Origin: an uncultured Bordetella sp.
GTDB lineage: Bacteria > Pseudomonadota > Gammaproteobacteria > Burkholderiales > SG8-39
Assembly: GCA_964564865.1 (NCBI GenBank)
Contig: CAZMDA010000010.1
Span: forward strand, 10,360 to 74,359
Direction: 5' to 3'
Length of the DNA: 64,000 nt
Numbering within the stretch: position 1 is the first letter of the stretch; the number at the start of each line of letters is the position of its first letter. Below the pieces are notes generated by a model, which saw only the letters and a program-made list of their open reading frames with translations, was not told the origin of the DNA and did not search any database. Position numbers and translations under genes: made by a program. Positions 44,268-47,819 of this stretch are shown one piece after another.

Positions 44268-44684
44268 ATGCTCCTCGTCAAGTCCCTGCACATCTTCTTC
44301 GTGGTGAGCTGGTTCGCCGGCCTGTTCTACCTGCCGCGCCTGTTCGTCTACCACGCGCTGAGCACCGACGAGCTGTCGCTGGAGCGCTTCAAGGTGATGG
44401 AGCGCAAGCTCTACTGGGGGATCGCCACGCCCTCGGGCCTGCTTGCGCTCGCCACCGGGCTGTGGCTGTGGCTGGGCTGGTTCCCCGGCGCCGGCGGCTG
44501 GCTGCACGCCAAGCTGGCGCTGGTGGCGACCCTGGTCGCCTACCACTTGTGGTGCGGCAAGCTGATGCTCGAGTTCCGCGCCGGGCGCAACCGCCACGGC
44601 CACGTCTGGTACCGCTGGTTCAACGAATTTCCGGTGATCGTGCTGCTGGGCGCGATCCTGCTCGTCGTCTACAAGCCCTTCTGA
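44268..44684 (+). CDS. hemJ: protoporphyrinogen oxidase HemJ (UPF0093/CopD-like)
   Basis: KSLHIFFVVSWFAGLFYLPRLFVYH signature. Four TM helices, 138 aa. Confidence 0.85.
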   Translation: MLLVKSLHIFFVVSWFAGLFYLPRLFVYHALSTDELSLERFKVMERKLYWGIATPSGLLALATGLWLWLGWFPGAGGWLHAKLALVATLVAYHLWCGKLMLEFRAGRNRHGHVWYRWFNEFPVIVLLGAILLVVYKPF

Positions 44685-44723
44685 GGTCTCTATTGCCTGG
44701 GCTTACCAAATACGACGCACGAG

Positions 44724-45272
44724 CTAGGACTTTGATTCGCCTCTGTGGGATTCAGTATCCAAGCGTCGAATCTTGAATCTGCCAATTCCAAGAGCTTGGT
44801 AGTTCTTGAACCGAAGTAGCTCCGCCGCTTCCTTGCCGATGAACAGTTCAGCATCCGTTCGCGGATCTCGATGCTCTACTACCTCGGTTACGAAAAGATG
44901 AATCGTTGGTTTGAACTCGCTCCCTTCATTCGACACCACCACTATCTCGCCTTTCGCGAGATTGAGGCGATTACCTTTAAAGGTGATCACGTAGTTACGT
45001 TCAAGCCGGTTGTTGATTCCAACATTTACATCGATTCCGCCCTCAATCTTGCTAACTAAGTTTGCGTTGAGTCGATCTATCGTACGTTGTACAGATTCAA
45101 TCTGACTTCCTGCACGTTTGATTATTGGAACTACATCAATGGCAGCGTTTACCAGATACCAAATGCCTGCAACTAGAAATCCACCAAAGACAGTGACGAA
45201 CCATACGTTGTTGACGAGTTTCTTCACCGTTCTACCCAATCCCGCTCGTTTTGTTTCTGGGCTCGTCGCCAT
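44724..45272 (-). CDS. hypothetical small membrane-anchored protein (islet gene 2)
   Basis: 182 aa. Basic N-terminus, one TM helix (FVTVFGGFLVAGIWYLVNAAI), a short coiled segment and a beta-rich C-terminal domain with no family I recognise. Lies 21 nt downstream of the ATPase gene on the same strand. Confidence 0.7.
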   Translation of the reverse strand: MATSPETKRAGLGRTVKKLVNNVWFVTVFGGFLVAGIWYLVNAAIDVVPIIKRAGSQIESVQRTIDRLNANLVSKIEGGIDVNVGINNRLERNYVITFKGNRLNLAKGEIVVVSNEGSEFKPTIHLFVTEVVEHRDPRTDAELFIGKEAAELLRFKNYQALGIGRFKIRRLDTESHRGESKS

Positions 45273-45293
45273 ACGCGTTTCTTTTCTTCTGGA

Positions 45294-46544
45294 TCAGGTA
45301 GTTGGTTTCTCACGCTTGCCGAAATTCAGTGCTCGTTGCGGCATTTGTCGGCGAATAAATCGACCGAGCAGAGGCACAGCGAAGGAGTACTTTCCATGGC
45401 GATTTTTGTATATGAGACCAGCGTCACACAGTACAGACAACATTTGACTAACGTGGCTACTGCTGAATGGTTTCGGAGAGCTCTTGGATTGCTCAACTAC
45501 CTCTTGAACTGTGAACTCATTCTCCGAAGTCTCCAGTTGCGCGATCACCCCCATTAACTCGCGTTGTCTATCTGTAGATCGTGCCCATCTACCGGAGAAA
45601 AAATCCGCGTCGAGCTTACGGACGATCTCATTCACTGGGACAGAGTGCTTCTCGCCCCGGGAGTCTTGCTGAATGAATATGTCGTAGACCTCTCTACAGA
45701 TAAACTGGATAAAGTAAGGGTATCCGGCAGAGATATCCACGATTGTGTCTACGGACTCACTGGTAAATGTAACTGGACAACCTGTGGCTTTGATTGGAAC
45801 CAGCATAGCGTCACGACTGGATTGTTGGTCTAGCCTATCTAGAAACACAACGTGGAACATTCGCTCTGAAAACGTTCTTGCTTCAACCAGCTTTGGGAAC
45901 AGTGTCGGGAGGCCAGTCAGTACAAGAGTGAACCGAATGCCCTTTCGTTGAAGCGACTGAAACACGTCAAGGAGCAACGACAACGGATACTGGTCCTTCT
46001 CCGCATGATCAGTGAGATTCTGTGCTTCGTCGTAGGCGAAGATGATTCCTCTCGGACCTTGGTCAATAGATGTAATGCGCTCCCACACAAGTTCCAATAC
46101 GCGCTTTAATTTATCGCTGACTAGCCCTGGTGTTTGATCGTAGACTCCTGCAAGAGTGTCAAAAGAAAGTCGTTCTTCAAACAAATCTGTTTGGGAAAGA
46201 AAGCCGGGTTTGCTTGTTCGCCAAGACCTATTTATGAGCGATGAGGTGACTACGGAAATGTCGGTAAGCAACCTCGTTGCGAGATTCTGTTCGCTTAGGC
46301 TGGATGTTTCGGATAGATCAGTTCCTACCCAAAGCCACTTCTCTCTGCCCGCAATTGGACGAAGCGATTCAAGAAGTACGGTTTTTCCAACTCCACGCAA
46401 ACCTGTAAGGACCATGTTTTGAAGAATCACTTCTTGGTCCAGCAGTTGCTCGAACTCCTTTATTTCTTTGTCACGTCCAGCGAGATAGGGCGGCATATGG
46501 CCTGCGCCTGGACGAAAAGGGTTTGCGAAAGTCTTCTTGGACAT
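45294..46544 (-). CDS. ORC/Cdc6- or Arch_ATPase/STAND-like P-loop ATPase with C-terminal winged-helix-like domain (islet gene 1)
   Basis: NPFRPGAGHMPPYLAGRDKEI lead-in. Walker A GLRGVGKT, Walker B IIFAYDEAQ. AGYPYFIQFI sensor-2-like helix. wHTH-like tail (VSQMLSVLCDAGLIYKNRHGKYSFAVPLL). Confidence 0.8.
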   Translation of the reverse strand: MSKKTFANPFRPGAGHMPPYLAGRDKEIKEFEQLLDQEVILQNMVLTGLRGVGKTVLLESLRPIAGREKWLWVGTDLSETSSLSEQNLATRLLTDISVVTSSLINRSWRTSKPGFLSQTDLFEERLSFDTLAGVYDQTPGLVSDKLKRVLELVWERITSIDQGPRGIIFAYDEAQNLTDHAEKDQYPLSLLLDVFQSLQRKGIRFTLVLTGLPTLFPKLVEARTFSERMFHVVFLDRLDQQSSRDAMLVPIKATGCPVTFTSESVDTIVDISAGYPYFIQFICREVYDIFIQQDSRGEKHSVPVNEIVRKLDADFFSGRWARSTDRQRELMGVIAQLETSENEFTVQEVVEQSKSSPKPFSSSHVSQMLSVLCDAGLIYKNRHGKYSFAVPLLGRFIRRQMPQRALNFGKREKPTT

Positions 46545-46682
46545 ATGCAGGCGCAGTGAATGAATTACATAAATTTACTGGAGTGGCTAATTGTAGTGCA
46601 CGATGTTGTTACTAGTCAACACTTAGAGGGCAACTAGGTAAATGATGCTTAATTGTTGTAAATCAGTAATTTAGGCACAGCC

Positions 46683-47819
46683 ATGAATGAGCTGTTCTTT
46701 GCTCCATGCCCTCGTGGCCTTGAGTCATTACTACGTGACGAGATTGATGCCCTTGGAGCGCAGAACTCATCTGTTACGAATGGTGGCGTTGCCTTCGCTG
46801 GATCGTGGGAAACCTGCTATCGGGTCAACCTGTGGTCGCGTCTTGCCTCCCGGGTGCTGTGGCGCGTCGCCGGGTTCGCCTACAAGACCGAAGAAGACGT
46901 CTACAAGGCCGCCAGGGCAGTGGATTGGCCGCGCCTGTTCCCGGTCCGCAACAGCCTGCGCGTAAATATTTCGGCGCAGAAGAGCCCGCTGAAGAGCCTG
47001 GATTTCGCCACCCTGCGCATCAAGGACGCCGTCTGCGACCGCTTCCGTGAAGTGCTCGGCAAGCGGCCGGACGTGGACCGCGCCAGCCCGGACACCCGGG
47101 TGCACGCCTTCCTGGAGGCCGATCGCGGCGCGCTGTACCTGGACACCTCCGGCGAGCCGCTGTTCAAGCGCGGCTGGCGCAGCCAGGCCGGGGAGGCGCC
47201 GCTGCGCGAGAACCTGGCCGCCGGGATCGTGATGCTGTCGGGGTGGAAGCCCGACGAGCCGCTGCTGGACCCGATGTGCGGCGGCGGGACCCTGCTGGTG
47301 GAGGCGGCGGCGATGGCCCGCGGCCGCGCACCGGGCGCGCGCCGCCGCTTCGGCTTCGAGAAACTGTCGAACTACGACGCCGGCCTGTGGGAGCGGGTGC
47401 GCAGCGCGCCCGGCGCGGGCGAGCCGCGCAACCCGGTGCTGTACGGCAGCGATTCGGACGAGAAGGCGATCGCGATGACGCGGCGCAACCTCGCCGAGGC
47501 CGGCGTCGAGCGCTGGGTGAAGCTGGAACGCGCGGACGTCCTGCAGCGCGCCGCGCCCGCGCCCGCGGGCGTGCTGATCGCGAACCCGCCCTACGGCGAG
47601 CGCATCGGCTCGCGGGAGGAACTGGAGGCGTTCTACCCGAAACTGGGCGATGCGCTGAAGCGCAATTTCGCCGGCTGGCGGGCGCACCTGTTCACCGCCG
47701 ACCTGAGGCTGCCCAAGCTGATCCGCCTGCAGCCGTCGCGGCGGGTGCCGCTCTACAACGGCGCGCTGGAATGCCGGCTGTACGAGTTCCGGATCGTCGC
47801 CGGGTCGAATCGCGGCTGA
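46683..47819 (+). CDS. THUMP-domain class I SAM-dependent RNA methyltransferase (RlmL N-terminal-like / UPF0020)
   Basis: THUMP-like N-terminal half, DPMCGGGTLLVEAA SAM motif, NPPYGER catalytic motif. Confidence 0.85.
   Translation: MNELFFAPCPRGLESLLRDEIDALGAQNSSVTNGGVAFAGSWETCYRVNLWSRLASRVLWRVAGFAYKTEEDVYKAARAVDWPRLFPVRNSLRVNISAQKSPLKSLDFATLRIKDAVCDRFREVLGKRPDVDRASPDTRVHAFLEADRGALYLDTSGEPLFKRGWRSQAGEAPLRENLAAGIVMLSGWKPDEPLLDPMCGGGTLLVEAAAMARGRAPGARRRFGFEKLSNYDAGLWERVRSAPGAGEPRNPVLYGSDSDEKAIAMTRRNLAEAGVERWVKLERADVLQRAAPAPAGVLIANPPYGERIGSREELEAFYPKLGDALKRNFAGWRAHLFTADLRLPKLIRLQPSRRVPLYNGALECRLYEFRIVAGSNRG

Follow-up and report, generated by a model that had tools for sequence, protein, structure and literature searches.

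A low-GC islet beside the THUMP methyltransferase gene of an uncultured Bordetella sp. carries a widespread ATPase gene with conserved promoter boxes and a separate membrane-protein gene

The subject of this work is a small AT-rich islet in a 64-kb stretch of DNA from an uncultured Bordetella sp. (the whole stretch, as analysed, is referred to below as the window). The islet lies between a hemJ-like open reading frame (ORF) and the ORF of a THUMP methyltransferase, and its entire content is two minus-strand ORFs separated by 21 nt: gene A, which encodes a 416-aa ATPase (45294..46544), and gene B, which encodes a 182-aa bitopic membrane protein (44724..45272). A preliminary description of this DNA had delimited both genes correctly, in the arrangement that we confirm here, and had proposed that they constitute a dedicated defence module. 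We consider it probable, though well short of certain, that they are two independent passengers in an acquired insert and not one system, gene A being an autonomous, self-repressing cassette and gene B a member of a family associated with restriction-modification (R-M) genes.

The idea of a dedicated two-gene module fared badly when other loci were compared. Gene A homologues of 58-70% identity were collected together with their surroundings (14 viral, 80 metagenomic and several long-contig loci), and with identical copies of the islet set aside, no relative of gene B was present at any of the 91 other unique ATPase loci. Conversely, an ATPase gene was near none of the gene B relatives whose contexts were inspected. 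The same pair was found on six short contigs, all of them identical copies of the islet, and beyond these copies gene A and gene B do not occur as a pair. A tightly linked combination of a nucleoside triphosphatase (NTPase) gene and a gene for a transmembrane (TM) protein in an AT-rich islet need not, in other words, form a system. What remains of interest is the gene A cassette, which is very widespread, conserved and mobile, and which combines a conserved operator with one hypervariable hairpin.

Gene A, its promoter and the putative operator boxes

Gene A contains all four motifs that had been quoted for it, namely NPFRPGAGHMPPYLAGRDKEI at residue 8, GLRGVGKT at residue 48, IIFAYDEAQ at residue 167 and AGYPYFIQ at residue 273. 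Across 78 homologues, the Walker A motif (GLRGVGKT, G48-T55; 46380..46403, minus strand) is invariant at G48, G51, G53, K54 and T55, and the Walker B motif (IIFAYDE, I167-E173; 46026..46046, minus strand) at Y171, D172 and E173. The sole Pfam domain to exceed its threshold is AAA_16 (PF13191), a generic P-loop ATPase (38.2 bits vs 32.6, residues 21-180), whereas AAA_22 (25.3 vs 27 bits), the ATPase_2/Arch_ATPase family PF01637 (24.0 vs 33.2 bits, aligned to residues 23-243) and nSTAND6 (18.7 vs 27.7 bits) stay below their cutoffs. Among the NCBIfam models nothing came close to a cutoff; the Orc1/Cdc6 model TIGR02928 reached 15.5 bits vs 181.3 and aligned to residues 16-59 only. The preliminary description had set its proposal against two other identities, a transposition ATPase and a replication initiator, and with both AAA_22 and TIGR02928 below cutoff gene A is not clearly either of these by sequence. 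At the C-terminus, Pfam and NCBIfam returned weak winged-helix matches only (ArsR/SmtB, MCM winged helix and Penicillinase_R), and a search of PDB sequences with gene A and with the family profile yielded Walker A similarity to ClpB only, or nothing.

The gene A protein is unusually conserved and widely distributed, as judged from sequence comparison. It corresponds to phrog_6841, a phage family whose function is not annotated (E 1.6e-65, residues 2-404 on positions 16-419 of the 470-position profile), and a search of 5.8 billion proteins produced at least 7,994 significant clusters of homologues. The top matches are 64-72% identical and belong to at least six phyla-level groups (Riflebacteria, Smithellaceae, Armatimonadota, Verrucomicrobiota, Thermoleophilia and Pseudomonas), the family as a whole holding 60-72% identity across phyla. 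The gene is thus already on record without annotation, both within phrog_6841 and among thousands of 'ATP-binding protein' entries, and we found no paper on the family in the literature on Arch_ATPase/AAA_16, Cdc6/ORC-like proteins and defence.

The AlphaFold model of the protein, built on the 78 homologues, has a predicted local distance difference test score (pLDDT) of 90.1 and a predicted template modelling score (pTM) of 0.84, and consists of an AAA+ base, a helical lid and a C-terminal winged-helix domain (approximately residues 322-400; 45345..45581, minus strand). This last domain is modelled as a helix-helix-helix-strand-strand winged helix with no alpha/beta nuclease core, and its assignment draws on the secondary structure of the model, on the weak winged-helix hits and on invariant columns: S363, H364 and Q367 of the putative recognition helix and N381, R382 and Y386 of the wing are invariant among the homologues. 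Several arginines of the protein are invariant as well. Variability is concentrated in a single internal segment, residues 105-134 (46143..46232, minus strand), with a column entropy of 2.5 bits compared with 0.4-0.9 bits in the core. The model places here a beta-hairpin insertion in the AAA+ domain (strands 104-111 and 119-125), and we regard this hypervariable hairpin as a candidate specificity surface.

Upstream of the gene, a palindromic box recurs systematically. Within the L043-L141 set of loci, the 200 nt preceding 82 unique ATPase genes contain 101 exact copies of the octamer TAAATTTA, while dinucleotide-preserving shuffles give an expectation of 2.3 +/- 1.5 (maximum 7) and the remaining 392 kb of locus sequence holds a single copy. 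If up to one mismatch is allowed, one or more boxes are found at 81 of the 82 loci, and at least two at 62. The spacing between boxes is exactly 18 nt in 63 pairs (the next commonest spacing has n=4), and the extended consensus is the 10-bp palindrome CTAAATTTAG. The promoter behind the boxes is of a near-consensus sigma-70 type: TTGAC precedes the box by 23-24 nt (32 cases) or by 5 nt (18 cases), distances from which it follows that the boxes coincide with the -10 hexamer (TAAATT), often with the -35 region, and with the start-site region.

The window follows the same plan. Reading along the minus strand, the predicted sigma-70-type promoter of gene A (46590..46619) comprises TTGACT (46619-46614), 18 nt and TACAAT, matches the consensus at 10 of 12 positions and has the geometry seen in the homologous loci. 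The operator-like box 1, CTACAATTAG (46587..46596, minus strand), overlaps the -10 hexamer TACAAT and departs from CTAAATTTAG at two positions; box 2, GTAAATTTAT (46569..46578, minus strand), with the exact core TAAATTTA, comes 18 nt after box 1, close to the predicted transcription start, and the ATG follows at 46544. The only further box in the 64-kb window is a match with two mismatches within the coding sequence of gene A (45320-45329). The promoter-box element is essentially unchanged from contigs of 34% GC (Firmicutes-like phages) to contigs of 65% GC, and also in the betaproteobacterium of the window with its GC content of about 70%. The gene, its promoter and the palindrome form one unit that is conserved over this range. 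Because gene A encodes the sole protein that always accompanies the boxes and its DNA-reading residues are invariant, we infer that the boxes are operators bound by gene A's own winged helix, which would give autorepression. When viral contigs were scanned for paired boxes, 119 of 120 matches lay in AT-rich genomes (median GC 0.30) without the ATPase, as chance would give.

Structure comparison places gene A next to two known groups of proteins. Foldseek ranks 2qen, 2fna and Orc1/Cdc6 chains highest (E 5e-12 to 1e-9), with TnsC and NLR/CED-4 chains placed below ORC. PABY2304 (2qen) and SSO1545 (2fna), two Arch_ATPases (PF01637/COG1672), are the best whole-chain matches (E 5e-12 and 7.5e-11, TM-score 0.57-0.66); both are functionally uncharacterised and both share with gene A an N-terminal lead-in before the P-loop. 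Gene A nevertheless stands apart from the Arch_ATPases in its sub-threshold PF01637 score and in a similarity that is invisible to a profile search of PDB sequences; unlike the archaeal proteins it is bacterial or phage-borne, is far more conserved and comes with a conserved promoter-operator. Archaeal and eukaryotic Orc1/Cdc6 proteins share with it the AAA+ base, lid and winged helix (E 2.6e-11 to 1e-9), but the TIGR02928 score is far too low (15.5 vs 181 bits), gene A is a solitary bacterial accessory gene without origin context, and the variable beta-hairpin insertion in its AAA+ domain is a further distinguishing feature. The earlier label 'ORC/STAND-like' thus holds in so far as the ATPase resembles ORC/Cdc6 or Arch_ATPase proteins and has a winged helix, while 'STAND-like' is less apt for a compact AAA+/lid/winged-helix protein devoid of sensor repeats: in contrast to STAND NTPases (NACHT, NB-ARC, nSTAND), gene A ends after the winged helix at residue 416, and nSTAND6 is below cutoff.

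Two further comparisons concern defence candidates and transposition. PDC-S01 and PDC-S27 of PADLOC resemble gene A in being very widespread single genes whose ATPase products are about 400 aa long and have a lead-in and P-loop like those of gene A; their published description is of ATPase domains fused to PD-(D/E)XK nucleases (PMC12988326). Their match to gene A extends over only about 40 residues and not over the full length (E 9.6e-5 and 8.9e-3), 19 of the 78 family members match them, and gene A differs in having a winged helix and no nuclease fold in its model; these candidates are moreover mostly unvalidated. PADLOC identifies no named defence system for gene A or for gene B, in agreement with the preliminary description. 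TnsC, TniB and IstB belong to the same AAA+ fold neighbourhood, and an IS1-family transposase adjoins the ATPase in 12% of gene A loci; gene A is unlike them in that the window has no transposase, the loci show no co-evolution and no element ends, and AAA_22 falls below cutoff.

Genomic surroundings of the two genes

At the collected loci the ATPase gene mostly has no partner. A tightly coupled, co-oriented downstream ORF (at least 80 aa) is present in 25 of the 65 deduplicated loci with enough downstream sequence, and the 76 co-oriented downstream ORFs fall into 56 sequence clusters, of which those with several members all stem from near-identical contigs or one lineage. Those that could be identified are mutually unrelated and comprise a tyrosine integrase, DUF1883-TIR, HsdM, a macro-domain protein, a ClpP-like protease, a phage metallopeptidase, MutS and UbiG. 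On long contigs the ATPase gene is solitary: its flanking genes are HhH-GPD and an unrelated convergent gene, ClpC and rpmA, or RecJ and an LptD-region gene, and elsewhere a HerA-like gene adjoins it. The same is true of the full-length homologues, about 30% identical, that occur on 105 plasmids. In the phage contig L051 the ATPase occupies an accessory position between the replication module and the terminase/portal genes, and the isolated phages of INPHARED contain just one homologue, at 29% identity. In nearly all loci of at least 7 kb the GC content of gene A is under that of its flanks, as expected of a gene that moves often. The neighbours of gene A homologues include Mrr-like NA-iREase1, TIR, HsdM, DRT-type reverse transcriptase, SoFic and MADS components; a comparison of the 144 nearest neighbours with PADLOC and Pfam gave a mixed picture, and this raw tally has no baseline, so that no enrichment is claimed.

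Two loci merit mention in their own right. In L061 (5001-7434) the ATPase gene shares 26 nt with the start of a tyrosine integrase gene, and the integrase ORF reads into what seems by eye to be tRNA-like sequence (…GGIEPPTRGFS…); should that be right, the copy would mark the edge of an integrated element. L136 and L137, from one sample (ERZ25039540), carry an identical ATPase and the same upstream HhH-GPD gene and differ downstream, where VIT/TPR genes are rearranged and Transposase_31 is nearby, which suggests strain-level rearrangement around the ATPase cassette.

A recurrent association is the one with IS1-family DDE transposases (PF03400 over cutoff), which 8 of about 64 unique loci carry at a distance of 150-320 nt upstream of the ATPase (L083:846-1697, L085:3964-4788, L102:415-1044, L105:4090-4812, L109:1083-1937, L114:197-829, L118:3841-4779 and L130:3907-4782). 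Seven of the eight are divergent from the ATPase and at a fairly constant distance from it, and the transposases are 40-60% identical to each other. Pairwise identities of transposases and ATPases are uncorrelated (r ~0). A search for terminal inverted repeats around the transposase, or around transposase and ATPase together, revealed a modest pair in L085 and nothing consistent elsewhere, and boxes are confined to the ATPase side, with none on the far side of the transposase.

Gene B was correctly described as having one TM helix and a beta-rich C-terminal domain, and the latter can now be assigned to a fold. In the AlphaFold model (pLDDT 89.3) the N-terminal tail is basic, the TM helix runs on into a long helical stalk (23-72), and the C-terminal domain is a double-psi beta-barrel (~80-170). 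In Foldseek the barrel matches PA4485 (4avr, TM-score 0.65 on target), the p97/Cdc48 N-domain, kiwellin, barwin and cerato-platanin, and in a viral structure library it also resembles phage RlpA-like proteins. Gene B thus has the fold of the RlpA-like, barwin and p97-N barrels (e.g. PA4485), but differs from RlpA-like barrels (DPBB_1) in lacking any Pfam or sequence match and in the anchoring of the barrel by an N-terminal TM helix and a long stalk. According to the positive-inside rule the barrel probably faces the periplasm. With a gap of 21 nt and no terminator predicted between the genes, gene B is probably co-transcribed from the gene A promoter.

Relatives of gene B are few and divergent. 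A word-indexed search retrieved only gene B itself, whereas an exhaustive HMMER search of 1.84 billion representatives recovered 47 distant relatives (23-35% identity, mostly 150-200 aa, best E 4e-18). They share the basic N-terminus, one hydrophobic helix and the C-terminal pattern GI.V.VGIN...GD.I.L.N...P.I...A.IFIS.EAA..LG, and the conserved residues G85, N115 and G162 point to no catalytic site. Neither Pfam nor PADLOC gave a hit for gene B or the 42 relatives scanned, and tblastn of gene B against annotated plasmids and phages found no match. Four relatives (L143:5001-5552, L155:4792-5322, L156:1705-2223 and L147:3393-3905) are at the end of or beside R-M operons (type III, MmeI-type and type I) or an ImmA/IrrE peptidase cluster, and a position 16 nt after a type III Mod-RhuM-Res operon is among the contexts seen. 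The contexts include a position after an MmeI-type enzyme gene and a 201-aa ORF, one 0.5 kb upstream of HsdM/HsdS (type I R-M) and a zeta-toxin-like gene, one after an ImmA/IrrE-type peptidase cluster and one in a Bacteroidota-like cluster of small uncharacterised proteins. These surroundings suggest that gene B represents a small, divergent, previously undescribed membrane-protein family with a known fold that tends to reside beside R-M genes or in defence islands. As a separate observation, three giant proteins (P0129, 2310 aa; P0150, 1168 aa; P0163, 1284 aa) match residues 53-118 of gene B in 7-8 repeated stretches each, so that part of gene B (the stalk and early barrel) is similar in sequence to their repeat unit.

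Function of the ATPase and the membrane protein

In the account that we favour, of two independent passengers, gene A would be an autonomous single-gene cassette that travels with its own broad-host sigma-70 promoter and with CTAAATTTAG palindromes at an 18-bp register. Its protein would bind the boxes via the invariant winged helix and repress its own transcription, ATP binding or hydrolysis may switch its DNA-binding or oligomeric state (Walker A and B being invariant), and the hypervariable hairpin at residues 105-134 could be the surface that meets a variable partner or trigger. The output would most likely be of a conflict/defence type or a mobile-element accessory function acting on incoming DNA. 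Gene B would be a small inner-membrane protein with a periplasmic barrel, and in the window its gene would merely be read from the promoter of gene A. That the islet genes act in defence or conflict is possible and is weakly indicated by the neighbours of gene A homologues and by the surroundings of gene B relatives. Several observations weigh against this account. No experiment or named family links either protein to defence, and the PADLOC matches (to PDC-S01/S27 over ~40 residues) are marginal; an immune sensor would not usually keep 60-72% identity across phyla, a degree of conservation that suits a regulator or a core function of a mobile element at least equally well; and many neighbours of gene A are plain housekeeping genes (MutS, ClpB/C, MnmE, ThiC, rpmA and RecJ). 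Moreover, binding of the boxes by the ATPase is deduced purely from their co-conservation, box 1 of the window is degenerate with its two mismatches, the co-transcription and the topology of gene B are both predictions, and the IS1-family transposases that adjoin the ATPase in 8 of about 64 loci could be a sign of a role in mobility.

A bolder version, which we hold to be possible while leaning against it, is that gene A is a single-gene module, extremely widespread and so far undescribed, with an immune or anti-mobile-element function; self-repression at CTAAATTTAG would hold its level low, and it would act without a dedicated effector. Invading DNA or a phage protein would then be recognised via the winged helix and the hypervariable hairpin, ATP-driven assembly on foreign DNA might for example block replication, and the TIR, macro, protease and nuclease genes, and gene B as well, would be optional add-ons under the gene A promoter. 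If the protein were instead a regulator or maintenance factor of mobile elements (a prophage or plasmid switch, or an initiator-like ATPase) with no immune role, the copy in the window would be a stranded, self-regulating remnant. Its very high conservation, the conserved self-operator, the ORC/Cdc6 fold, the position between replication and packaging modules in phage contigs, the copy beside an integrase and the full-length homologues on 105 plasmids would all be in keeping with such a role; archaeal Orc1-2 acts as a transcription factor. Yet most copies are chromosomal, between housekeeping genes and with no other element genes nearby, and the gene is nearly missing from isolated phages, with the one distant INPHARED match. 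There are no boxes elsewhere in the window beyond the degenerate one noted above and nearly none elsewhere in the loci, so no regulon is visible, and solitary copies retain intact, invariant catalytic residues, which speaks for a function of use to the host or to the gene itself. A pure regulator of this kind therefore seems to us fairly unlikely.

The original notion of a dedicated abortive-infection pair, in which the ATPase senses infection and activates the membrane protein and the cell is killed or arrested, finds support in the local arrangement: the two genes are 21 nt apart, co-oriented and equal in GC content, no terminator lies between them, and the pair recurs on six short contigs. 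About a third of ATPase loci also have a tightly coupled downstream gene, a few of them effector-like (TIR, macro, ClpP-like protease, with an Mrr-like nuclease nearby), and relatives of gene B are found in defence contexts. Against it, the recurrence consists of identical copies of the islet, neither gene accompanies the relatives of the other and most ATPase genes have no partner at all; in addition, gene B would expose only about 20 residues to the cytoplasm if the inferred topology is correct, which makes a direct contact with the ATPase hard to picture. We therefore judge such a pair to be decidedly unlikely. Least credible, and very unlikely in our view, is the idea that gene A, like IstB, TniB, TnsC or MuB, encodes an ATPase that helps transposition or selects its targets, here in partnership with IS1-family transposases, the solitary copies being orphans after loss of the transposase. 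It would account for the eight upstream transposases, seven of them divergent and at a near-constant distance, and it fits with the TnsC structures among the fold matches and the weak AAA_22 hit; but this hit is sub-cutoff, the islet has no transposase and neither do 88% of the loci, and the lack of correlated identities (r ~0) and of consistent terminal inverted repeats, together with the restriction of boxes to the ATPase side, is difficult to accommodate.

Defining the role of gene A would allow the annotation of thousands of 'ATP-binding protein' genes across bacterial phyla and phages. With that role defined, an ORC/Cdc6-type DNA-binding ATPase without a nuclease would also join the accessory or immune functions of bacteria. 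The conserved promoter-operator offers an immediate experimental handle on binding, repression and the trigger of induction.

The acquired segment at the hemJ-THUMP junction

The islet is horizontally acquired, as the preliminary description had supposed. Its GC content is 0.472 over 44685-46682, compared with 0.72 and 0.69 in the 10 kb on either side, and the earlier hand count of 26/60 at 45061-45120 is exact. The plus-strand hemJ-like ORF (44268-44684) and THUMP methyltransferase ORF (46683-47819) that flank it are directly joined in relatives, which we found by scanning one genome per species with the THUMP protein; the same scan places the host among the betaproteobacterial Burkholderiales. 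In L013, L014 and L015 (THUMP 84-91% identical) the hemJ stop abuts or overlaps the THUMP start, and the same empty junction occurs in at least 12 further, more distant Burkholderiales relatives; the 2-kb block is hence absent from at least 15 genomes, and the empty site that the preliminary description had suggested looking for does exist. Both genes of the islet are intact as far as the models can tell: a pseudogene or spurious ORFs can be excluded, as both proteins are modelled at a pLDDT of about 90 and have homologues.

With respect to the extent of the foreign DNA, the left border given previously was correct, directly after the TGA stop of hemJ (44685), whereas the right border is not at the THUMP start but inside the THUMP gene, at approximately 46850 +/- 30 nt. 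The first ~170 nt of this gene have a GC content of 0.54 vs 0.72 for the remainder, and in blocks of 60 nt they are 55-73% identical to L015, compared with ~90-95% further on. The encoded protein is 70% identical to that of L015 over its first 58 residues and 95% over the remainder, and this N-terminal segment is roughly equidistant from all sampled relatives. The replaced 5' end (46683..46850, plus strand) still codes for a homologous N-terminus, of a foreign and lower-GC source, and turns the gene into a mosaic. On the combined evidence of composition, empty sites and block-wise THUMP identity to L015, the acquired low-GC segment covers 44685..46850 (GC 0.48), a total insert of about 2.2 kb at the hemJ|THUMP junction. 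A THUMP 5' end of its own came with the insert, which therefore most likely arrived through homologous replacement; the donor, not among the sampled genomes, would already have had the islet beside a THUMP gene. The islet would thereby be a clean case in which homologous replacement at a fixed junction both adds genes and alters the start of a housekeeping gene.

Other modes of arrival and other readings of the segment received no support. As the preliminary description had stated, there is no integrase or transposase ORF in the islet and no tRNA, the tRNA search covering 38-53 kb of the window; a tRNA- or integrase-mediated island is thereby excluded. An empty Rfam scan of the islet excludes a non-coding RNA, and no intrinsic terminator is predicted within it. 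The repeat search at the islet gave only short, weak repeats of a kind that is frequent by chance. One 13-nt direct repeat is situated by both borders of the foreign segment, at 44666-44678 (CGTCTACAAGCCC), 46877-46889 (CGCCTACAAGACC) and 46898-46910 (CGTCTACAAGGCC). Both repeat sequences exist in the empty-site relative L015, so that the repeat is not a target-site duplication; it may be due to chance or may be microhomology used in recombination.

The same hemJ|THUMP junction is occupied by a different, high-GC insert in two other Burkholderiales genomes (L020:6827-8000 and L019:148-1320). In L020 it codes, on the opposite strand, for a 379-aa protein with TPR and methyltransferase domains, and the junction thus appears to tolerate insertions and to accept them repeatedly.

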